Below are positions 15,673-25,543 of a DNA stretch of 25,543 bases, one piece after another. The stretch is from positions 1 to 25,543 of the IMG/VR virus record IMGVR_UViG_3300012943_000056; one strand, given 5' to 3'. A program made the translations under genes and the position numbers. The DNA comes from a virus. Its lineage: Duplodnaviria > Caudoviricetes. The notes below the pieces were generated by a model that ran no database searches, was not told the DNA's origin, and saw only the letters and a program-made list of their open reading frames with translations. Every line of letters begins with the position of its first letter. Position 1 is the first letter of the stretch.

Positions 15673-16359
15673 ATGAAACTTCAACTTGAAATCCGAGCAG
15701 CCGAGGGTGGCGCCGACGCCAAGCTCTTCGTGGCTGACCTGTCTTCCGCGTACTCACGCATGGCCGGCAAATTCGGCTGAAAGTGTAACGTCGCAGAGAG
15801 CAGGCAATCCGATAAAGGCCTGCACCTAGCCGTCCTGGCATTCGAGGGCGACGATCTAAGTTCCTTACATAACGAGGTGGGTGGCCACCGGATCCAGCGC
15901 GTCCCTCCGACGGAGCGCAAGGGCCGAGTGCACACCAGCACCGTCACGGTCGCCGTGGTGGACGCGTCCTCGTCTGACTTCACAATAGCCGATCGCGACC
16001 TCGAGGTACAGTGGTACTCGGGCAGCGGGTCCGGCGGTCAGAACCGGAACAAGACGCAGAACTGCTGCCGCCTCATCCACCGCCCGACCGGCATAGTCCG
16101 GACCGCGCAGATGAGGGACAGGAGCTCGAGCTACACGGCCGCGCTGAAGGCCCTTATGGGCGACCTGAAGTCGGCGCACGAAGGGGCCAGGGCCCAGTCG
16201 ACGAACGACGCCAGGCGTGACCAGATCGGCTCTGGGATGAGGGGCGACAAGGTTCGCACGTACCAATTTCAGCGCGACTCGGTTGGCGACCATCGCTCCG
16301 GGAAGGTTGCGCGCTGCAGGGACGTCATGCGGGGCAATTTCGATCTGCTGTGGTCGTAA
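15673..16359 (+). CDS. class I peptide chain release factor, RF1-type (PxT), lacking domain 1, with in-frame UGA at codon 36
   Basis: SD AGGAGG then ATG 15673: MKLQLEIRAAEGGADAKLF..KFG*KCN.. continues in frame into GHRIQRVPPTERKGRVHTS, GSGGQNRNK and KVRTY; TGA at 15778-15780. Confidence 0.85.
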
Positions 16360-16695: not shown

Positions 16696-17000
16696 TGCAG
16701 GGTGAGACCTACAGCGTCGGCGACGAGGTCTACGTCATAGCGGACCACAAGGTCATCAAGACACGCGTCACGAAGGTCTCGCCGGTGACGGCTACGTGCC
16801 TCCTGCAGTATGGCGGCCTGATGCCGCACGAGGTCAAGTTCACGAAGGGCGGCGACCGGATCATCCACGCGTCGGTGCCATTCACGGCCGTCATGAGCCA
16901 CAAGGGCAGGGCCTTCTTTGATACGGCCAGCTACCCGCACAAGAATAAGGTGGGCAGCCTGGGCCAGCATGACCTGACGGACTGGGAATACATTCGGTAG
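16695..17000 (+). CDS. hypothetical protein (101 aa)
   Basis: GTG start overlapping the upstream TAG. Confidence 0.65.
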   Translation: MQGETYSVGDEVYVIADHKVIKTRVTKVSPVTATCLLQYGGLMPHEVKFTKGGDRIIHASVPFTAVMSHKGRAFFDTASYPHKNKVGSLGQHDLTDWEYIR

Positions 17001-17010
17001 AAAATATCAG

Positions 17011-17039
17011 TTTACTACCCCACCCGGGTATGGCAAAAT
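17011..17039 (+). promoter_or_regulatory. sigma70-like promoter upstream of the tRNA array
   Basis: TTTACT-17 nt-(TGG)CAAAAT; same -35 as the promoter at 22394. Confidence 0.55.
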
Positions 17040-17073
17040 GCTCACACATTGTTTATTTGCGTCGAGGAAATCG

Positions 17074-17099
17074 CATAAATAAACGAGGCTGGATAAATA
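17074..17099 (+). promoter_or_regulatory. two late-promoter motifs (CATAAATA, GATAAATA)
   Basis: Same core as 7429, 13332 and 20780. Confidence 0.55.
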
Positions 17100-17137
17100 T
17101 CTGGCAGATTAGCAAACAGTTTCGAATTGAGGTTATA

Positions 17138-17242
17138 ATGTCTTCATTGAGTGCAAGAGTGACAACGATTGGTGGTTCAGGGCTCGGATATAGCCTGATA
17201 GCCGTGTCGTCTGCCGCCCTTGTCCCAGGTAGCCAGATGTAA
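17138..17242 (+). CDS. putative 34-aa leader peptide MSSLSARVTTIGGSGLGYSLIAVSSAALVPGSQM
   Basis: SD GAGG at 17129-17132; stop codon abuts attenuator-like hairpins; 25 distinct codons. Confidence 0.55.
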   Translation: MSSLSARVTTIGGSGLGYSLIAVSSAALVPGSQM

Positions 17243-17302
17243 CCCTTGAGTAAGACTCAGATCTTTTCTCAAGGGGCCTCGAAAGGGCCCCTTGAACGTT
17301 TT
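17243..17302 (+). terminator. attenuator-like antiterminator/terminator pair
   Basis: CCCTTGAG (17243-50) pairs with CTCAAGGG (17268-75), mutually exclusive with the 11-bp hairpin TCAAGGGGCCT/GGGCCCCTTGA (17269-17295) followed by ACGTTTT. Confidence 0.6.
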
Positions 17303-17506
17303 CGGACCGCAAGGTCCAAACGCTGATTAGCAGTTCAGCGAGAACAAAAGGCGGACCGTTAAGATACCAGCCGGTGGCGCACCCTGAGGCTGGAGGAATG
17401 CGAGAGTGCGACAGTATTTTTGATGAAATATGGCCCGATCGAAAGGTCGGGCCATCTCATCCGCCCGATCCAGGTGAGGCGGCTGAGTATCGACCTGGAA
17501 GAATTC

Positions 17507-17589
17507 GCCCTTGTGTCTCATGCGAATTGGTACAGCTGCTGGACTTAAAATCCGGGATCTTGTGGGTTCGAGTCCCACCAAGGGCACCA
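17507..17589 (+). tRNA. tRNA-Leu(TAA), short variable loop, extra nt before the D arm
   Basis: Acceptor GCCCTTG/CAAGGGC, loop CT-TAA-AA, TTCGAGT, ACCA. Confidence 0.85.
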
Positions 17590-17611
17590 GACACAAGGAC
17601 ATCGTTTCATC

Positions 17612-17698
17612 GGGAGTGTAGACCGTAATGGTTTCGAGACAGTCTGTAAAACTGTTGCCCATAGGGCCAACTTGGTTCAATTCCAGGCATTCCCACCA
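17612..17698 (+). tRNA. tRNA-Tyr(GTA)
   Basis: ACAGT-CT GTA AA-ACTGT, long V arm, TTCAATT, ACCA. Confidence 0.92.
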
Positions 17699-17721
17699 CT
17701 TTCATCTCATCATTTATCACT

Positions 17722-17800
17722 GGCCCCATACCAGACGAGCCTTCTAATCTCGAGCACTGTAATTGGATCGATGCAGGTTCGAGTCCTGCTGGGGTCGCCA
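17722..17800 (+). tRNA. atypical tRNA-Arg(TCT)-like gene lacking a canonical D arm
   Basis: Acceptor GGCCCCA/TGGGGTC, loop CT-TCT-AA, canonical T arm, GCCA. Confidence 0.65.
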
Positions 17801-17803
17801 AGT

Positions 17804-17890
17804 TTGACTCCTAGTTTAAGGAGAACACACGGGAGTACCCGGCGTCCGACAGGACTTGGTGGTGCGGCGGTCATATCGTCGCGGAGTCAA
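17804..17890 (+). ncRNA. tRNA-like RNA without anticodon loop or CCA
   Basis: Closing stem TTGACTCC/GGAGTCAA; D-like TAGTTTAAGGAGAAC; hairpins CGGG-AGTA-CCCG and GTCC-GACA-GGAC; T-like GCGGC..GTCGC. Confidence 0.5.
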
Positions 17891-18023
17891 TTGAACCTTG
17901 TGGCCCATGAATGCACTTCGCAAGCCACCGCTACGCGTCACGGGTTGATGCGAGGTCTCCGACGCACCAAAGCACGGGGTTCGGGATCTTCCACAAATTC
18001 CTGGCGGAGTGCATCCGCCACCT

Positions 18024-18116
18024 ATGCTGAGGGTCCCACTCACCCGCTCAGAAGAGCTAAGTGGATAAATGCTGAGGGTCCCACTCACCCGCCCAGACAG
18101 GGCTAAGTGGATAAAT
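18024..18116 (+). repeat. tandem 45/46-nt structured repeat (2 copies)
   Basis: ATGCTGAGGGTCCCACTCACCC-GCTC agaa GAGC / GCCC agaca GGGC-TAAGTGGATAA. Confidence 0.9.
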
Positions 18117-18118
18117 TC

Positions 18119-18193
18119 GGGGAATGGGCAGGGCACCCAGGAAATCCTTGCAAGATTTCAGCTTGATCGGTTCGAGTCCGATATTCTCCACCA
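18119..18193 (+). tRNA. tRNA-Ala(TGC), reduced D arm
   Basis: GGGGAAT/ATTCTCC with G3:U70, loop CT-TGC-AA, ACCA. Confidence 0.85.
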
Positions 18194-18202
18194 ACTTGAT
18201 AT

Positions 18203-18280
18203 AGCGGGATCGAACAACGGTAGGTCACTGTCCTCATAAGGCAGACATGGTGTGGTGTTCAATTCCCACTCCCGCTACCA
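18203..18280 (+). tRNA. tRNA with CAT anticodon (Met-type), bulged T stem
   Basis: AGCGGGA/TCCCGCT, CT-CAT-AA, ACCA. Confidence 0.8.
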
Positions 18281-18293
18281 CCTTTTAGTTTAT

Positions 18294-18378
18294 GCCCTCG
18301 TGGTGAAATTGGTAGACACGCCAGCTTGAGGTGCTGGAGCGTAACAGTGTGGAGGTTCGAGTCCTCTCGAGGGCACCA
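18294..18378 (+). tRNA. tRNA-Leu(GAG)
   Basis: CCAGC-TT GAG GT-GCTGG, long V arm, ACCA. Confidence 0.93.
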
Positions 18379-18713
18379 ATTCGAAAGCAAAGGGGTCGTG
18401 ACTCATTGTCCGCAAGGATGAAGAAGCCAGCGATGGTGGAGACACTGAACCCGACGCCCCAACGTTATAAACCTTCGCAGCCGCCGGTGGCCGGGTGCAA
18501 TTGAAGAGACGTTGCGGACGCTACCAAGAACATGACCAGTACGCTGCAGTATAACCTGCTGAAGCCGGGGCTCACTCCGGACGTGGGAATCTGGTCGAAA
18601 GGGTTTACCCGTTCCTATGTGAATACGGGAAGATTACTCCAACGTACGGACCTGCAACATCTTATGATGCCGGCGTTGGGAAGAGAGGAGGTTGCAGTCC
18701 TCTTGAGAGATTC

Positions 18714-18788
18714 GCCCGGTTAGCTCAGCGGTAGAGCGGAATCCTTACACGGTTACGGTCGGGGGTTCGATCCCCTCACTGGGCACCA
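18714..18788 (+). tRNA. tRNA-Val(TAC)
   Basis: Canonical D and T arms, CT-TAC-AC, ACCA. Confidence 0.92.
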
Positions 18789-18791
18789 ATA

Positions 18792-19390
18792 TCTGACTGC
18801 TGTGGTGTACAGCCAAGCTGAAAACCGCCACAGAGGATAAGAGACCCTGCGGGTTGCAAACTGCGCGGTCGACAGTCGGACCAAATAAGAAGCGTCGATC
18901 TTCCTACCCGAAAGGGAGGTGACCCACACAACTCGTGGGTCTGGCAAATGCGGCGCACAATTCGTTTTGCAGTGATGTAGCTTATGGCCGGCGCGTTCTA
19001 AATCGCGTTAAGTGTTGCGTCGGCTCCTTCGATGGAAGATACGCGATTCGCCTGTCACTGCGATTTTAAGCACCATGGCTGTGCTTCGTGGAGTTAGCGG
19101 CCCCATGAAGAAGATGAGGATGGTGCAGCCGCAAGAACCTAACTCAACTCGTACCCGATCAGGGCACCCCATCAGCCGGAAGGCACAACATGTGGCCCGA
19201 GATCAGCCCAGGCATGAATGGGTGGTGCGATAGACGTTGGCTCCGGATGTGGGGTCAGCGCGACGAGAATATAAGCGACACCCCGCCGTGATACCTGCGT
19301 AAGGGATAGCCCGCCCACGGGTGCGAAATAAATGCAAAAGTCGGTAGCTCCGACAGGGACCCTCGCCGTGCGGCGACGAGGATTTCCCGC
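18792..19390 (+). ncRNA. cluster of structured non-coding RNA modules
   Basis: Successive closed domains (18792-18880, 18892-18956, 18969-19061, 19070-19145) separated by A/T-rich linkers; GNRA loops; no credible ORF. Confidence 0.55.
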
Positions 19391-19394
19391 CTTT

Positions 19395-19471
19395 CGGAAT
19401 GTAGCTCAGCCTGGTAGAGCGCTTGCTTCGGGAGCAAGAAGTCGTCGGTTCAATTCCGGCCTTTCCGACCA
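19395..19471 (+). tRNA. tRNA-Pro(CGG)
   Basis: CTTGC-TT CGG GA-GCAAG, ACCA. Confidence 0.93.
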
Positions 19472-19485
19472 AATTCTGTTTCATT

Positions 19486-19562
19486 CGGGGTGTAGCTCAG
19501 CCTGGTAGAGCGCTTGCTTTGGGAGCAAGATGTCGCAAGTTCAATTCCTGTCACCCCGACCA
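19486..19562 (+). tRNA. tRNA-Pro(TGG)
   Basis: CTTGC-TT TGG GA-GCAAG, ACCA. Confidence 0.93.
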
Positions 19563-19736
19563 TTTTGGTTCGCTGCCACCGTAAAAGGCAGCAAAGTTTT
19601 GTTCGGTTGGAGGGTCTGGAAAACTTATCCGACAGAGTAGCAGTCTGATGCAGCCTTACCTTAGTGGGTTCGAGAGATCATCCTAGTTGCATTCCTGATG
19701 GTTAAAAGATGCGCGCTGGCCGAACAGATTCATTTC

Positions 19737-19810
19737 GCGGGTGTAGTTTAATGGTAAAACTCCTGCCTTCCAAGCAGACCTCGAGGGTTCGATTCCCTCT
19801 ACCCGCTCCA
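19737..19810 (+). tRNA. tRNA-Gly(TCC)
   Basis: CT-TCC-AA loop, U73 discriminator, CCA. Confidence 0.93.
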
Positions 19811-19817
19811 ATTTCAT

Positions 19818-19893
19818 GCGGTATTAGTTCAGTTGGTAGAACACAACTTTGCCAAAGTTGAGGTCACCGGTTCGAGCCCGGTATACCGCTCCA
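19818..19893 (+). tRNA. tRNA-Gly(GCC)
   Basis: CAACT-TT GCC AA-AGTTG, TCCA. Confidence 0.93.
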
Positions 19894-20063
19894 TCGCGAC
19901 GTGATTGGCTGGTCACGTAAATCGGCAATTGCCTCCCCTCACCCGGGTACGTATTGCCTTGGCTCCTGGTCGTGCAGGGTTACTGGCACGTGCACCTGGT
20001 ATAGACAGGTTGGGTTAGCGGGATACCCGAGATACAAGCCGCTAGCTATTCAAGAATTGTGGG

Positions 20064-20180
20064 CTCACTCACGCCAGGACAAACGGGCGGTCGTCGTGTT
20101 GTCGTAATAGGGGAACTGGTATACCCATCCTCGCAAGAGGTAGCATGTGCGGGTTCGAGTCCCGTCGACATTGGAGTGAG
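20064..20180 (+). ncRNA. tRNA mimic with a GNRA hairpin replacing the anticodon arm, embedded in a larger stem
   Basis: D-like GGGAACTGGTATACCC; CCTC-GCAA-GAGG; canonical GCGGG-TTCGAGT-CCCGT; TGTCG/CGACA; outer CTCACTC/GAGTGAG; no CCA. Confidence 0.65.
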
Positions 20181-20266
20181 AACGCAGGACGGATGGAAAT
20201 ACGAGCTGTGTCCGCGGTAGCCGGCCACACTGTCCAGCTCTTCCATCCATGCGCTACCGCCTATTC

Positions 20267-20343
20267 GCCCAAGTGATGGAATTGGTATACGTGCCAGCCT
20301 CAAAATCTGGATCCTGTGGGTTCGAGTCCCACCTTGGGCACCA
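20267..20343 (+). tRNA. tRNA-Leu(CAA), short variable loop
   Basis: GCCCAAG/CTTGGGC, CT-CAA-AA, ACCA. Confidence 0.9.
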
Positions 20344-20440
20344 AGACGTTTCGGCAACTGGAAAGGTACGTCGCGCGGAGATGGCGCGGAAGGCACCAGC
20401 CACTCGTGAACCGTTAGCGAGGTCGAGACTGCATTTCATC

Positions 20441-20536
20441 GCTCCTTAGCACGGGTGTGCGGCTGGGCCTTATAGACCCGGGAGAGCTGCCAGATTAGCG
20501 GCAACGGCGAGGGTTCGAGTCCCCGAGGGAGCACCA
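20441..20536 (+). tRNA. atypical tRNA with TAT anticodon (reads AUA), long V arm, tiny D arm
   Basis: GCTCCTT/AGGGAGC, loop CT-TAT-AG, V arm GCTGCC..GGCAAC, bulged T stem, ACCA. Confidence 0.65.
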
Positions 20537-20558
20537 ACAATAACAACAAAGGATACCC

Positions 20559-20768
20559 ATGTCGCCGCAAGACTTCTGCTATTGGCTCCAGGGCGTGCTC
20601 GAGGTTACCAAGCCGGAGCAGCTCGACAAGGAGCAGCTCGCCATGGTTCGCGAGCACCTGGACCTGGTCTTCACCAAGGTCACGTCCGTCCCGAAGGTTG
20701 AACCGGTGATTAGTCGCAGACTCTGCGCCTCCGGCACTGCCTTCGACAGCACCACCAAGATCTGCTGA
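20559..20768 (+). CDS. hypothetical phage protein (69 aa)
   Basis: SD AAGGA; QDFCYWLQG..IREHL-type pattern; strong GC3 codon usage. Confidence 0.85.
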   Translation: MSPQDFCYWLQGVLEVTKPEQLDKEQLAMVREHLDLVFTKVTSVPKVEPVISRRLCASGTAFDSTTKIC

Positions 20769-20779
20769 TCCGACCGGCC

Positions 20780-20787
20780 CATAAATA
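20780..20787 (+). promoter_or_regulatory. late-promoter motif (CATAAATA)
   Basis: Same core, 5 nt before ATG 20793. Confidence 0.5.
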
Positions 20788-20792
20788 CTCTC

Positions 20793-21263
20793 ATGAGGAG
20801 AGTAGTCGGTCTGGTAGCTTCGGTACTTCTCCACCTGATCTTCCTGGTGGCCCTACTCATTCGTCCCGACCTTACCGGCGCCGGCAAGCCAGCGATGGCA
20901 GATCTCGAGGAGAACGTCATCCACATATCCATGATGGGTGACATGATCAAGCCGAAGGAGACTGGCGACGGAGAGTCGACCAATGACGACGAGGACCGCT
21001 GTGCCAATGGCACGAAGAAGTACAACGGCGTCGGGTTCATCTACAGCCGGGAGACCGGCATCATATCCGACGTGCCAGAGACGACGCCGGCCTACAAGGC
21101 CGGCATCCGAGAGTACGACGTCCTCATGAATCCGACCGACGGCGACCTGCCGCCCGGCCCGGCGACGATCGTCATCATGCGCTACGGCGTGTCGATGTCG
21201 TTCGTGATAGAGACGACCAAGATATGCTACGACACCGAGAAGACCGCGGGTCCTAGCGAGTAA
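20793..21263 (+). CDS. membrane-anchored PDZ-domain protein
   Basis: N-terminal TM; YNGVGF..ISDVPETTPAYKAGIREYDVL is a PDZ signature. Confidence 0.75.
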   Translation: MRRVVGLVASVLLHLIFLVALLIRPDLTGAGKPAMADLEENVIHISMMGDMIKPKETGDGESTNDDEDRCANGTKKYNGVGFIYSRETGIISDVPETTPAYKAGIREYDVLMNPTDGDLPPGPATIVIMRYGVSMSFVIETTKICYDTEKTAGPSE

Positions 21264-21418
21264 ATGCGAGGGGTGTTGGACGTTCGTCTACTGATGTAAC
21301 GTGCCTCCGGTTAGTGGCCGAGAGGGCTTCAGCGGCTGCCAACATCTTTGTTCCTGTGGTGGATTCACTATCCTCCGTCGCGCCACATGCATGGAAAATG
21401 CGACACCTATTCCCAAAT

Positions 21419-21501
21419 GCCGGGTTGGCTCAGTGGCGACAGCAGCTGTTTTGTAAGCAGCCATACAAACACCGGGAGTTCGAATCTCTCACTCGGCACC
21501 A
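21419..21501 (+). tRNA. tRNA-Thr(TGT) with 12-nt unpaired variable loop
   Basis: GCTGT-TT TGT AA-GCAGC, ACCA. Confidence 0.88.
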
Positions 21502-21529
21502 GATTTTTTGCAACAGAGAAACATACCAT

Positions 21530-21640
21530 ATGAATATTTTAGTGTACCTTACCTTGGCCATCTTCATTGTCGCACCCGTCCTCATGTTCTACACATGGGG
21601 CAAGCAGGAGCTGCGCACACGGTTCAAGTTGAACATCTGA
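21530..21640 (+). CDS. small single-TM protein (36 aa)
   Basis: MNILVYLTLAIFIVAPVLMFYTWGKQELRTRFKLNI fills the gap between two tRNAs. Confidence 0.55.
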   Translation: MNILVYLTLAIFIVAPVLMFYTWGKQELRTRFKLNI

Positions 21641-21648
21641 TTTTCTTC

Positions 21649-21723
21649 GCGCCCTTAGCTCAGCGGTAGAGCGCTTCCTTGACATGGAATAGGCCGCAGG
21701 TTCGATCCCTGCAGGGCGCACCA
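21649..21723 (+). tRNA. tRNA-Val(GAC)
   Basis: TT-GAC-AT loop, canonical arms, ACCA. Confidence 0.93.
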
Positions 21724-21735
21724 TTTTCGTTTTGT

Positions 21736-21891
21736 GCGGTTGTGGCGCAGTGGATGACGGGCCCGCAATAAGCGGGATGGATCTGCCCGAGAACGGCGTG
21801 AGCCTCGCGATGGTCTGCAGAAACACGCGTGGCGATATCCGACCGGGGTACGGCAGTGTAGGTTGGGTTCGATTCCCAACCGACCGCACCA
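21736..21891 (+). ncRNA. 156-nt tRNA-like RNA with a large structured insert replacing the anticodon arm
   Basis: Acceptor GCGGTTG/CGACCGC plus ACCA; D-like GCGCAGTGGATGACG; T arm GTTGGG-TTCGATT-CCCAAC. Confidence 0.75.
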
Positions 21892-21926
21892 GTTTTGAAG
21901 TGGCGTATAATGGCCACACGATTTGA

Positions 21927-22002
21927 CGCAGAGTAGAGCAGCTGGAAGCTCGTGTGGCTCATAACCACGAGGTCGGGGGTTCAAATCCCTCCTCTGCTAC
22001 CA
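21927..22002 (+). tRNA. tRNA-Met(CAT), probable initiator
   Basis: C1:U72 mismatch, GAGC/GCTC D stem, CT-CAT-AA, ACCA. Confidence 0.88.
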
Positions 22003-22064
22003 TTTTGGCTGTCTAAGAGGGTTCCTTAAAACATTTAACGGCAAATATTACTCTCCGACGCCAT

Positions 22065-22093
22065 TTGACTTCCGACCCCTCGGGTGCTAACGT
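22065..22093 (+). promoter_or_regulatory. possible sigma70-like promoter for tmRNA
   Basis: TTGACT-17 nt-TAACGT. Confidence 0.4.
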
Positions 22094-22099
22094 CCGTTG

Positions 22100-22385
22100 G
22101 GCGGATGATGAGTGTACAATGTTCGACTGAATGAGTTTTGGACGGGGCTCTCAGATGCCCCCACCTCCACCAATTAAGCGCAGTCATTTGCGCGAGTGCG
22201 GGGGTGACAGGATTCGACAGGGCTAGCTAGGAAGAAACGCACTCCGACAGGCGATCGTCGTAAATGAAGCGAAACAAGTAAACGCTGCAAATGACGCAGA
22301 ATTCGAAATGGCCCTCGCGGCCTAATTCGAATGCGGACACCCGGTCCGTATAACCCAACGGTAGGGGGTGGGGCAACCCACCCCT
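22100..22385 (+). ncRNA. ssrA: circularly permuted two-piece tmRNA (outer ends approximate)
   Basis: Acceptor piece GACGGGGC..GCCCC-CACCTCC-A-CCA ends at 22172; coding piece starts GGGGGTGACAGGATTCGAC at 22200 (G3:U70); tag AANDAEFEMALAA* at 22284-22325. Confidence 0.9.
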
Positions 22386-22393
22386 GTCTAAGA

Positions 22394-22422
22394 TTTACTT
22401 GGGTCGGCGCATCGGTTATAAT
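22394..22422 (+). promoter_or_regulatory. sigma70-like promoter
   Basis: TTTACT-17 nt-TATAAT. Confidence 0.7.
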
Positions 22423-22508
22423 GGCACATGGCGCGCGACTTACTCACTGGACGATACTTTAGGCCAGCAGCGAAATCCGGTCATCAGATAACAAAGGACA
22501 ACGACTCA

Positions 22509-23528
22509 ATGTCAATATTCCATGCGGAGACGCGATTCATCCTTCACGATCACGAGGCAGCCGAGTGGCAGCTCAGTCGGAAGAAGGGTTCGTACGTCGC
22601 TCTCTACCTCGAGCTTGAGGACCTCAACAAGTCGTTCGCGTTCCTCTGCGACGCGCTCAAGCTGACGGTGCATGCTGCCCAGGCCGAGTCCAAGTTCAAC
22701 AGCAACGTGTTCGCGTACGACTCCGAGATGATGTTCATCTGCGGCGAGAACAACGTCCTCGAGGGCTGGGTCCACCAGGACCGCGCCGAAGAGGTCAATG
22801 CGATCGTCAGCAAGTTCAAGACGGCCGCGTCGTCTTCCAAGGTCAAGTGGTTCTTCAAGGACCCGTCCGGCCGCATCACGTCGTCCGACCTGAACCTCGA
22901 GGGATCGAACCCGCTCAACGAGTTCTACCCCTGGATGCACCAGGACATCGACTCGTTCGCCAAGGCCTTCCTGAAGTCCAAGGCCAACGTCATGCTGCTG
23001 CTCGGTCCTCCGGGCACCGGCAAGACGAGCTTCATCCGCCGGCTGATCCGCGCGATGAACTTCGAGACCTGGATCACGTACGATCCGGATGTGCAGCAGT
23101 CCGAGTCCTTCTTCATGCGCTTCGCGAAGCCGACGGCGGAAGACCGCTACGGCGACGACAGCGACGACACCAGCCCGCGTCTCCTCGTCATGGAGGACGC
23201 CGACACGATGCTCGAGGCACGCGGCGACGGCAACAAGCTGATGACCCGGATCCTCAACCTGGCGGACGGCCTCGTGTCGCTGCCGGATCGCAAGATCATC
23301 TTCAGCACGAACCTGCCGGGACTGACGAGCATCGACGACGCGCTCCTGCGCCCGGGCCGCTGCTTCGCGGCGATCAGGTTCAGGCACCTGACGAAGGCCG
23401 AGGCGTCCGTAGCCTGCCAGGCGATCGGTCGCGAGTACACCGGCACGTCGGACAAGGTTACGCTGGCCGAGGCCATCAACGGCGACGACCACAATCAATT
23501 AGGGGTGATGAAGATCGGATTCACCTAA
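22509..23528 (+). CDS. AAA+ ATPase (single classic AAA domain)
   Basis: Walker A GPPGTGKT, Walker B LVMEDAD, second region of homology STN..IDDALLRPGR; SD AAGGA favours ATG 22509 over 22428. Confidence 0.9.
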   Translation: MSIFHAETRFILHDHEAAEWQLSRKKGSYVALYLELEDLNKSFAFLCDALKLTVHAAQAESKFNSNVFAYDSEMMFICGENNVLEGWVHQDRAEEVNAIVSKFKTAASSSKVKWFFKDPSGRITSSDLNLEGSNPLNEFYPWMHQDIDSFAKAFLKSKANVMLLLGPPGTGKTSFIRRLIRAMNFETWITYDPDVQQSESFFMRFAKPTAEDRYGDDSDDTSPRLLVMEDADTMLEARGDGNKLMTRILNLADGLVSLPDRKIIFSTNLPGLTSIDDALLRPGRCFAAIRFRHLTKAEASVACQAIGREYTGTSDKVTLAEAINGDDHNQLGVMKIGFT

Positions 23529-23745
23529 GGATGCGACGCGAGTAAAGCCTGGTGCTCCCACGGGAGCTGGCAAGAGATCCAGGACAAGCATGATCCATCT
23601 CGCCGACATGAACAAGTCGTAAATGGTTCCGCGTGGTAGCCGCGTAAGAACTCCCTAATTTTGAATTCCTGTTTGGCCGTGCCTGGATAAAAACTCAAAC
23701 GGCCATGCGTTGACGACGGGCGTACGCCTCGAGACGCATTTACAC

Positions 23746-23820
23746 GGGACCATAGCTCAGTGGTAGAGCAAAGTCTTGATAAGGCTTAGGTCGTAGGTTC
23801 GAGCCCTACTGGTCCCACCA
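23746..23820 (+). tRNA. tRNA-Ile(GAT)
   Basis: AAGTC-TT GAT AA-GGCTT, ACCA. Confidence 0.93.
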
Positions 23821-23956
23821 GATGTGAAGCGCGAAGTACAAGCGCGACGCTAGGCGGCTGTAGTATGACTACGTGAAGGTCGCCGGACGCAGGTAAGGCA
23901 AGTCAACGGAGAATGGGAAGCGTCATCGCTGATACCTCACCGGCCTGCAACTATTC

Positions 23957-24039
23957 GCCCGATTGGTGGAATTGGTAGACACGATGGTTTTAGATGCCAT
24001 TGCGCAAGCGTGAGGGTTCGAGTCCCTCGTCGGGCACCA
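23957..24039 (+). tRNA. tRNA-Leu(TAG)
   Basis: ATGGT-TT TAG AT-GCCAT, V arm, ACCA. Confidence 0.93.
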
Positions 24040-24043
24040 ATGT

Positions 24044-24116
24044 TTTGGCATAGTTTATGAAGGTATAAAACGCGAGGATACCTCGAGAAGTCGGGATCAT
24101 GGTCGCGACTGCCAAA
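24044..24116 (+). ncRNA. tRNA-like RNA with a 3-nt loop in the anticodon position, no CCA
   Basis: TTTGGCA/TGCCAAA; TA-GTTT..AAAC D arm; CGAGG-ATA-CCTCG; GTCG..CGAC T-like arm. Confidence 0.55.
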
Positions 24117-24131
24117 TCAAATTCGATTTTC

Positions 24132-24210
24132 GCCCCTGTGGTCAAACTGGTAAAGGCGCTCGGCTCAGAACTGAGAGATTTTGTGAGTTCGAATCTCACC
24201 TGGGGCACCA
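24132..24210 (+). tRNA. tRNA-Leu(CAG), short variable loop
   Basis: CTCGG-CT CAG AA-CTGAG, ACCA. Confidence 0.9.
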
Positions 24211-24213
24211 AGT

Positions 24214-24379
24214 TTGTGGAAGTAAGCTTAGAAGCAGCTACCTTTAATGAGTGACCCGCTGAAACGGTCTGTCGTGCATGACACTCCAAAGTAGGACGGA
24301 TTGTAGCCACGACGATCGGCGGCGGCCGCCGCGTTCGATCGCACGATGCTAGCGTCTTCGGCGTAACAGCACACCACAA
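24214..24379 (+). ncRNA. 23S rRNA L11-binding domain (H43/H44) mimic with ~107-nt insertion
   Basis: GCTTAGAAGCAGC..TTTAATGAGT and GCGTAACAGCACAC match 23S nt ~1055-1104; closed by TTGTGG/CCACAA. Confidence 0.75.
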
Positions 24380-24389
24380 TTCATTTCAT

Positions 24390-24460
24390 GGCATGGTCCT
24401 GATACCGCTCGTATCCACATGCGGGTTCAGATGGCGCGGATACCGCCTACAGTGCCGCCA
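24390..24460 (+). ncRNA. 71-nt CCA-terminated RNA with complementary (kissing) loops
   Basis: GGCAT/GTGCC stem plus GCCA; loops GTATCC (24411-16) and GGATAC (24438-43). Confidence 0.55.
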
Positions 24461-24464
24461 ATTT

Positions 24465-24556
24465 GGAGACGTGGGAGAGCCTGGTTTAATCCGCAACCCT
24501 GGAAAGGTTGTTGGCCCGCAAGGGCCACGTGAGTTCGAATCTCACCGTCTCCGCCA
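24465..24556 (+). tRNA. tRNA-Ser(GGA)
   Basis: CAACC-CT GGA AA-GGTTG, long V arm, GCCA. Confidence 0.93.
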
Positions 24557-24586
24557 TTTACAAGTCGGGCATCGATGTGATATAAT
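24557..24586 (+). promoter_or_regulatory. sigma70-like promoter
   Basis: TTTACA-18 nt-TATAAT directly after the tRNA CCA. Confidence 0.6.
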
Positions 24587-24610
24587 CTTCTCACTTATTG
24601 GGAGGATGAC

Positions 24611-25207
24611 ATGCACGATACCCCTTTGTTCTGGGCCACTATGGCATTAGTCGGCGCGACCTTGATTCTTGCGGGTGTTGCTGCCTGGGGCCTGATCTAT
24701 ACACCGAAGCAGGCTGAATCTGATCGTCAGAACGAAAGATGGATGCGAGCACTTAGTGTTATCTCCTTCTATAACTTTGGTTTTGGATCAAAGGTTCCAT
24801 TGGAGTGGTCATCAGAGATTCACAACCTAGCCTTGTTACGGGATGTCAACATCAATCAGCTCAAGGATGCACTGCTCAGGCGCATTGCCGAGATGCCAAC
24901 TCAGGGACTTGCTCCTGTCATAGGGGCTCATGAAAATCTAATACGGGCATTGGCTAACAGATTGGCTGTCGATCCGATTCCATTCTTACATGTCTATCAA
25001 CCGCAGCATCTCGCGGATCGTGAAAAGCAAATTGACGCGGCCCTTGCGGCTATACCCTCTATGAGTCTTGGCGCCAGAGCTTCATTGGCTATGCTAGGTC
25101 TTGTGAAGAAGGTGCAGGCCAATGAAGATGGCTTTGGTGAACTGGTTGAGGCTGGGTTAGACGAAGTGAAAAAACTCGATGAATTTATTGCGGCTACGAA
25201 AAAATGA
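24611..25207 (+). CDS. AT-richer membrane-anchored hypothetical protein (198 aa)
   Basis: SD GGAGG; N-terminal TM; many A/T-ending codons. Confidence 0.7.
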   Translation: MHDTPLFWATMALVGATLILAGVAAWGLIYTPKQAESDRQNERWMRALSVISFYNFGFGSKVPLEWSSEIHNLALLRDVNINQLKDALLRRIAEMPTQGLAPVIGAHENLIRALANRLAVDPIPFLHVYQPQHLADREKQIDAALAAIPSMSLGARASLAMLGLVKKVQANEDGFGELVEAGLDEVKKLDEFIAATKK

Positions 25208-25395
25208 CAGAGCCCAGCTACTGCTGCAACACCTGCTACGAGAAGTCTGTAGCGCGTGACATGTTCGCCGACATGTTCGGCCGCCGCATGATCCTGTGCC
25301 CGACGTGCGGCAACAAGCGTTGCCCGAAGGCGACGGACCACGGCAACACCTGCACGAACAGCAACGAGCCAGGACAGGTCGGCTCGAATTACTAA
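25204..25395 (+). CDS. small Cys-rich (Zn-binding) protein (63 aa)
   Basis: CCNTC..CPTCGNKRCPKATDH..C; ATGA overlap with upstream gene. Confidence 0.8.
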   Translation: MTEPSYCCNTCYEKSVARDMFADMFGRRMILCPTCGNKRCPKATDHGNTCTNSNEPGQVGSNY

Positions 25396-25398
25396 TTT

Positions 25399-25488
25399 GG
25401 AGACGTGGGGGAGCGGTTTATCCCAGAACTTTGCTAAAGTTCCGGTCCCGAGAGGGACCCGTGAGTTCGAATCTCACCGTCTCCGCCA
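25399..25488 (+). tRNA. tRNA-Ser(GCT)
   Basis: GAACT-TT GCT AA-AGTTC, long V arm, GCCA. Confidence 0.93.
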
Positions 25489-25493
25489 ACTTT

Positions 25494-25543
25494 GGAAGCG
25501 TGGCAGAGCCCGGTTTATTGCACCTGTCTCGAAAGCAGGAGAC
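25494..25543 (+). tRNA. tRNA-Ser(CGA), truncated by window end
   Basis: GGAAGCG-TG-GCAGAGCCCGGTTTATTGC-A-CCTGT-CT CGA AA-GCAGG. Confidence 0.8.

Follow-up and report, generated by a model that had tools for sequence, protein, structure and literature searches.

A leader open reading frame matched in amino-acid content to a phage tRNA array: a candidate multivalent transcription attenuator

Why is a phage tRNA array preceded by a short open reading frame (ORF) whose peptide contains almost exclusively the amino acids served by that array? The question is raised by a DNA of 25,543 nt (hereafter the window), which is an entire virus record and represents a jumbo-phage fragment related to Ralstonia phage RsoM2USA. 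The tail-sheath protein encoded in the window has its nearest cultured match in this phage (54.7%), followed among cultured phages by Stenotrophomonas CM1 and RAS14 and by Xanthomonas Xoo-sp13 and XacN1, and uncultured relatives reach 73% in the best segment. The single listed sequencing run containing the record is a soil metagenome, with no RNA data set listed, and the type of tmRNA located within the array points to a betaproteobacterial host. A Logan contig showed 0 differences to positions 16841-18331; since this contig may come from the source sample, the agreement argues only against an assembly slip.

The leader ORF (17138-17242, plus strand) consists of ATG, 33 further codons and TAA, and encodes the peptide MSSLSARVTTIGGSGLGYSLIAVSSAALVPGSQM. 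Reading of the ORF agreed with the initial annotation in that 25 distinct codons are used and that codons for Lys, Glu, Asp, Asn, Phe, His, Cys and Trp are absent. A Shine-Dalgarno-like GAGG (17129-17132, plus strand) lies 5 nt before the ATG, and purine-rich motifs of this kind also precede the leaders found in related phages. At 17074-17081 on the same strand, 64 nt before the start codon, there is a variant of the box YATAAATA, which we take to resemble the T4 gp55 late promoter box and which may function as a promoter; a YATA(A/T)ATA box was present 31-103 nt upstream in 10 of the 13 leaders examined.

The end of the leader lies 270 nt upstream of an array of 22 tRNA genes for 11 amino acids (A, G, I, L, M, P, R, S, T, V and Y), all on the plus strand. 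Eighteen of them were called by ARAGORN with default settings, two by Rfam or relaxed ARAGORN (Arg-TCT at 17722-17797, 32.5 Rfam bits; Leu-TAA, 24.4 Rfam bits, which is below the cut-off, and found by ARAGORN only at -ps), and two were read by eye (Ile-TAT at about 20441-20536, with a long variable arm, and Ser-CGA from 25494, truncated by the contig end). The proximal part (17507-22002) comprises 16 anticodon entries with small ORFs interspersed, in the order Leu-TAA, Tyr-GTA, Arg-TCT, Ala-TGC, CAT, Leu-GAG, Val-TAC, Pro-CGG, Pro-TGG, Gly-TCC, Gly-GCC, Leu-CAA, Ile-TAT, Thr-TGT, Val-GAC and CAT. It is followed by a permuted tmRNA of the betaproteobacterial type (22056-22389, plus strand; RF01850, 90.4 bits at a cut-off of 84; RF04321, 105.1 bits) and by the distal genes Ile-GAT, Leu-TAG, Leu-CAG, Ser-GGA, Ser-GCT and Ser-CGA (23746-25543). 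Sigma70-like promoters are located within the array at 22394-22422 and 24557-24586, and the distal tRNAs may therefore be transcribed separately, outside the control of the leader. As the contig ends inside the last tRNA, the array is known only up to this point. Ser-TGA, which is absent from the window, probably lies past the contig end, because it was called in all four complete arrays of the same type in the clade; Ala-GGC may lie there as well.

After the start codon, 32 of the 33 leader codons specify amino acids of the array, and all 11 array amino acids are present. The match is complete (30/30) in codons 2-31, here called the sensing zone and defined as the codons whose A site sits at least 13 nt before the antiterminator arm described below (segment 2); the sole miss is the Gln in the tail Ser-Gln-Met. 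Under uniform codons, with Gln counted as a miss, the probability of at least 32 matches among 33 is 2.9e-4. This level was reached by 10 of 20,000 open base shuffles, by 5 of 4,883 protein windows and by 1 of the 126 other ORFs of 25-45 codons in the window; the additional demand that all 10 non-Met array amino acids occur left 297 of 2,000,000. Since the array amino acids own 44 of the 61 codons, the composition match of this leader taken alone is modest. The initial annotation had also relied on codons rare in this genome. Their use is real when compared with the phage genes (GC3 16/33 versus 0.87), but it equals uniform synonymous choice (p 0.47), and the number of distinct codons, 25, is no higher than expected under that null (p 0.44). 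Rare codons thus lend the match no further support.

The initial annotation had recognized the matching of leader and array, but its finding text did not include the pair of alternative RNA structures that follows the ORF. Segment 2, the 5' arm of the antiterminator (17242-17250, plus strand), begins on the last base of the stop codon and pairs with the 5' arm of a terminator-like hairpin (17269-17303, with the hairpin proper at 17269-17295, plus strand; -20.2 kcal/mol), the two helices being mutually exclusive. The U-tract of the window hairpin is weak and offset (3 T among the 8 nt following the core stem), and the hairpin was called neither by a consensus terminator scan nor by the strict scan of short ORFs described below. 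The same logic, built of different sequences, was found in all 14 leaders folded: the hairpin starts 12-28 nt after the stop codon, and its 5' arm can instead pair with the end of the ORF. At 10 of 13 loci the hairpin is followed by 5-7 T in the first 8 nt, and 3 T of 8, as in the window, were found also in the A-array leaders of the relative G020 and of RsoM2USA. The mean duplex energy of the two arms was -15.8 kcal/mol within a locus, -10.0 across loci and -6.7 with the first 50 nt of the leader, and the own arm was the single best partner in just 5 of 13 cross-tests. When 201 short ORFs with a Shine-Dalgarno motif near tRNAs were scanned without regard to composition, the 8 matches comprised 7 leaders and 1 false match; 6 of 13 leaders were missed, the window leader among them. 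A ribosome footprint moved along 8 leaders, which as an equilibrium model is a proxy for a kinetic process, caused the sequestration of the terminator arm to fall near segment 2, sharply in most of them and mildly in the window, where modelled sequestration is shallow (6-9 tenths in the sensing zone and 3-5 at the end).

Between the putative attenuator and the first tRNA lies a conserved structured RNA (17353-17411, plus strand) that belongs to no Rfam family. Among the 13 leader loci, 8 have this RNA, located 106-121 nt after the stop codon; it is also present in G005, and compensatory changes were found in 4 of 11 pairs among six copies of the B type. As a guess, it could be an antitermination or processing element. 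Three loci without this RNA carry words resembling the boxA consensus. A copy of the RNA also precedes a mixed tRNA array without a leader (L102:9001-9046).

The evidence that carries the argument comes from related phages. The near-complete relatives G001-G003 have 49-55 tRNAs, placed in two main arrays 40-150 kb apart. Array A serves mainly Val, Tyr, Gly, Leu, Ser, Pro, Thr and Ala, as in the window, and array B serves His, Glu, Lys, Asn, Trp, Asp, Phe, Gln, Arg, Ile, Thr, Val and often Cys. Each main array in these three genomes is preceded by a short ORF of matching composition. Both arrays of G020 and the B arrays of L120-L122 were found with a DNA pattern derived from the conserved RNA downstream of the leader, and together with RsoM2USA this gives five genomes with two arrays and a leader before each. 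The leaders were located by position and not by sequence similarity, and they were picked by eye once the array content was known. In this sample 12 of 15 leader loci were counted; left out were G005 A, whose array is truncated at the end of its contig, L121, which is also truncated, and L122, which has the same leader as L120. Searches by similarity gave little: blastn of window positions 16900-21000 against cultured phages found tRNA matches only, and blastn of 17000-17520 in five related records found nothing except chance matches of 14-20 nt. No usable match was obtained by blastn of one B leader region or tblastn of one B peptide, and neither the release-factor-like protein nor the CobT-like protein, used as queries for related loci, recovered a relative. 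Patterns for the A-type downstream motif and for the odd tRNA-Ala of the window matched G001 and G005 only, with no match in genome contigs; of the 10 matches to a loose B pattern, 5 fell in coding DNA by chance, and 19 of 22 further records examined had no tRNA.

In the sensing zones of the five paired genomes, 189 of 199 array-exclusive residues belong to the leader's own array. Fisher p per genome ranged from 6e-11 to 3e-7, values that overstate independence because the clade genomes share ancestry; the independent events are few, namely two partition types and about five swaps. Misses are distributed unevenly along the leaders. With strict tRNA calls they amounted to 23 of 313 residues in the zone and 42 of 112 in the tail, with relaxed calls to 13 of 313 and 41 of 112, and the contrast was stable for offsets of 6-19 nt. 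The misses thus cluster where the ribosome would already cover segment 2, and the Gln of the window leader is such a tail miss. The initial annotation had noted that Lys, Glu or Asp tRNAs on the same transcript would speak against its reading; in the relatives, the tRNAs for Lys, Glu, Asp, Asn, Phe, His, Gln and Trp were found in the separate array B, which is preceded by a leader of opposite composition. Beyond the present contig there is presumably such a second array, its leader complementary to that of the window.

The leaders also follow their arrays when the tRNA genes are distributed differently. In RsoM2USA the first array (Pro, Cys, Glu, Tyr, Leu, Trp, Ser, His, Val) is preceded by the ORF MTSHWHSYSLPVSSLELYCLEVEMT and the second (Met, Ile, Asn, Gln, Lys, Arg, Phe, Ala, Val, Pro, Asp, Thr, Gly) by the ORF MFNAFNNNQRQNQAAMFDVRAIAFNAKNDIKGVALVE, a split different from that in the clade of the window. 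Both ORFs (MG752970.1, 112124-112047 and 87361-87248, minus strand) are unannotated; ORFs over 50 amino acids were called in that genome, according to the available text of PMC8504454. These leaders score 18 and 16 of 19 with their own arrays and 3 with each other's, and with the ten other arrays at most 13 and 15. Within the clade, G003 alone has Cys in its A array, and its A leader alone has it too; neither array nor leader has Val in G020 A, or Ile in G002 A and in G020 B; and in the window Arg occurs in the array as well as in the leader. The expectation that leaders of other arrays track their own tRNA content was thus borne out in RsoM2USA and in the swaps of the clade. When arrays were permuted among leaders of the same type, p was 0.008 for A (the floor for five leaders), 0.10 for B and 0.002 for both types, and the own array was the best or tied for 9 of 12 leaders. 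The non-canonical Phe-AAA call in G001 A was left out, which does not affect the within-type p because no A leader has Phe. The agreement is incomplete: leader codons are lacking for the Arg and Trp tRNAs of G002 A, the Ile tRNA of G003 A and the Pro and Thr tRNAs of RsoM2USA B, and Asn is present in two A leaders.

The matching holds strongly at the level of amino acids, but the one-to-one mirroring of anticodons by codons proposed in the initial annotation is at chance. In the window an exact Watson-Crick codon is present in the leader for 12 of the 20 non-Met anticodon types (11.0 expected under uniform synonymous choice, p 0.38), and with wobble 19 of 20 types are matched (15.0 expected, p 0.017), Pro-CGG being the exception. 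CAG and TCA indeed have no visible tRNA, as had been stated, but the list was incomplete, since Ala GCC, used three times, also lacks a cognate anticodon in the window. Over 12 leaders, exact Watson-Crick matches (166 versus 164.5 expected) are at the level of chance, while wobble-decoded codons (272 versus 259.9, p 0.005) and matched anticodon types (168 versus 159.2, p 0.03) exceed it slightly. The only Thr anticodon in A arrays is TGT, and B arrays have only GGT and CGT; the two leader types have 12 Thr codons each, of which ACA accounts for 9 in the A leaders and for 1 in the B leaders (p 0.003). Wobble-level matching and this tuning to Thr isoacceptors constitute the weaker, codon-level signal.

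The ORF, its Shine-Dalgarno motif, the two exclusive pairings, the composition match and its covariation with array content were all established by computation, and taken together they most probably represent a multivalent, ribosome-mediated (leader-peptide) transcription attenuator gating a phage tRNA operon. Translation of the leader, its coupling to transcription, termination, the direction of control, the trigger and the extent of the controlled transcript are what we infer from these features. The RNA polymerase transcribing the leader, with a ribosome following, would likely be that of the host, because the available text of the RsoM2USA paper annotates no RNA polymerase (PMC8504454). 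If codons 2-31 were decoded at normal speed, the ribosome would reach the end of the ORF and cover segment 2, the terminator hairpin would form and transcription would stop before the tRNAs. Scarcity of any tRNA family borne by the array, whether cut, degraded, outcompeted or uncharged, would cause the ribosome to lag in the sensing zone; segment 2 would then pair with the 5' arm of the terminator, and transcription would enter the array. The array tRNAs would relieve the lag, which amounts to negative feedback, and the amino acids missing from one leader would be served by the second array with its complementary leader. By the logic of the attenuators treated in the available text of PMC1183508, one codon per tRNA would make a weak sensor.

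Among the other explanations, the one that survives best, although unlikely, retains the same sensor with another output, the position of the ribosome setting Rho-dependent termination, pausing or RNase processing of the long stem formed by segments 2 and 3. Such an output fits the long, near-continuous helices that these stems form, the conserved RNA located after the hairpin, and the weak U-tracts of the window, G020 A and RsoM2USA A, but the T-rich stretch found at 10 of 13 loci is the usual form of an intrinsic terminator. It is quite improbable that the leader is a general sensor of translation speed or coupling, with a composition following the array through shared history only. The chance level of exact codon matches and the B-type permutation result are in its favour, but complementary alphabets, agreement with the different split of RsoM2USA and with the swaps of Cys, Val and Ile, and misses confined to the tail are not required of such a sensor. 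A small functional, e.g. membrane, protein, in which the lack of charged residues would be structural, is very improbable: the window peptide is indeed uncharged but for one Arg, with a maximum 19-residue hydropathy of 1.48, but Met1 is the only invariant residue among six A leaders, the peptide has no Pfam match, and the B leaders of the same pairs, which occupy the corresponding position, encode hydrophilic peptides (-0.4 to -1.2). Equally improbable, and already largely refuted by the paired arrays, is a chance ORF in a structured non-coding leader, for which speak the cheap match, equalled by one other short ORF of the window (low-complexity, off-frame, 7 kinds of residue), and the uniform codon use, but against which stand equivalent ORFs with a Shine-Dalgarno motif, an open frame and the same switch before 13 other arrays, and the use of amino acids disfavoured by chance in the B and RsoM2USA leaders. 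The attenuator design may be less than universal: in XacN1, Xoo-sp13, RAS14 and PA5oct no leader was found by eye or among 56 ORFs scanned, and either it does not occur there or it was missed by the scan, which recovers just 7 of 13 known leaders.

The preferred reading, a leader-peptide attenuator, has relatives among known systems, and its segments are named after segments 1-4 of classical attenuators. Leader-peptide attenuators control amino-acid operons of enterobacteria, such as trp, his, leu and pheA and the multivalent thr and ilvGMEDA (available text of PMC1183508). Common to them and the phage loci are a short translated ORF (here predicted), an antiterminator overlapping its end, a competing terminator (likewise predicted, and with a weak U-tract in the window), and control codons placed where stalling leaves segment 2 free, in the phage at the level of amino acids. 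The phage loci differ in that tRNA genes of a lytic phage, and not biosynthetic enzymes, would be controlled. The classical runs of codons for one to three amino acids are absent, the window leader having 23 distinct codons for 10 amino acids in the 30 zone positions; phage leaders cover 9-15 amino acids, mostly with single codons, and, unlike enterobacterial attenuators, they form complementary pairs within a genome. In E. coli, attenuation at the pheM leader of pheST controls phenylalanyl-tRNA synthetase, and there too it feeds back on a component of translation via the supply of charged tRNA, but for one amino acid, with a protein product and in a cellular genome. T-box riboswitches, named in the available text of PMC2965389, also set the choice between terminator and antiterminator by tRNA status, but they bind the tRNA directly and need no ORF; positions 16900-25543 gave no Rfam T-box match at E up to 1. 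The trn operon of Anabaena PCC 7120 with its repressor TrcR is likewise a long tRNA array switched on under translational stress (available text of PMC8421152 and PMC10272220). It differs in being controlled by a repressor protein, and the words 'leader' and 'attenuat' do not occur in the main text of PMC8421152.

The reason for phage tRNA genes has been open for over 50 years, and phage tRNA arrays have been considered a counter-defence against anticodon nucleases (PMC10264068, PMC7824862, as far as their available text goes). This is likely the purpose of the present array as well; the available text of both papers describes no sensing or regulation, and that of PMC7824862 contains neither 'leader' nor 'attenuat'. 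In a literature search to which most subscription journals did not belong, leader-peptide attenuation of phage or cellular tRNA genes was not found. The window and its relatives contribute the paired arrays in five genomes, the re-partitioned arrays of a cultured phage and the confinement of misses to the part that cannot be sensed. A leader listing the amino acids of its array would show what the phage monitors, implying supply on demand instead of constant codon compensation, and would extend attenuation from amino-acid synthesis to the tRNA genes themselves. More tentatively, and somewhat short of probable, the paired leaders could be a phage sensor of tRNA-targeting host immunity, together polling most of the genetic code: if an anticodon nuclease or RNA decay late in infection removed any tRNA family, exactly the array holding the replacement would be opened. 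The arrays would thus be an inducible, self-tuning counter-defence, rewritten when a tRNA gene changes array. The question of purpose becomes testable by depleting one tRNA and watching one array, and RsoM2USA, a cultured phage, carries two copies of the leader. A compact sensor for at least 10 tRNA families could also report anticodon-nuclease defences.

Several further features were observed in and around the arrays. The coding part of all six B-side leaders (L088, L092, L096, L124, L120 and L125) forms a long hairpin, with z between -2.9 and -4.2 relative to codon-shuffled sequences; within the window ORF such a hairpin is not significant (z 0.5), nor is it in any A leader. Upstream of the window leader lies a gene resembling class I release factors (15673-16359, plus strand; Pfam RF-1 and PCRF) with an in-frame TGA at codon 36 (15778). 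The Gly-stop is conserved in position in G001, G003 and L120, in which the gene directly follows array B, and the in-frame TGA suggests programmed readthrough or feedback on release-factor supply. Within the window array, the tRNA-Ala(TGC) at 18119-18193 is of unusual shape, with a G3:U70 pair and without an Rfam match, and has a similar copy in G001; directly before it, two tandem copies of a structured repeat of about 46 nt occupy 18026-18117 (plus strand). About 1 kb of non-coding, apparently structured DNA without an Rfam match extends over 18400-19390. Three tRNA-like elements on the plus strand (20097-20174, about 21715-21890 and about 24390-24460), one with a large insertion, have an acceptor stem and T-arm-like ends without a canonical anticodon loop. 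Between the tRNAs of L088, L090, L092, L094, L096, L098 and L120 there recurs an element of AACCG, then GGTTATC, then a tRNA-like T-arm, on which ARAGORN made no call. Amber (CTA) suppressor tRNAs, often paired, are located outside the two main arrays in most relatives (L089, L093, L099, L123, L081, L126, L128 and L130), and an amber suppressor tRNA of RsoM2USA is described in the available text of PMC8504454.
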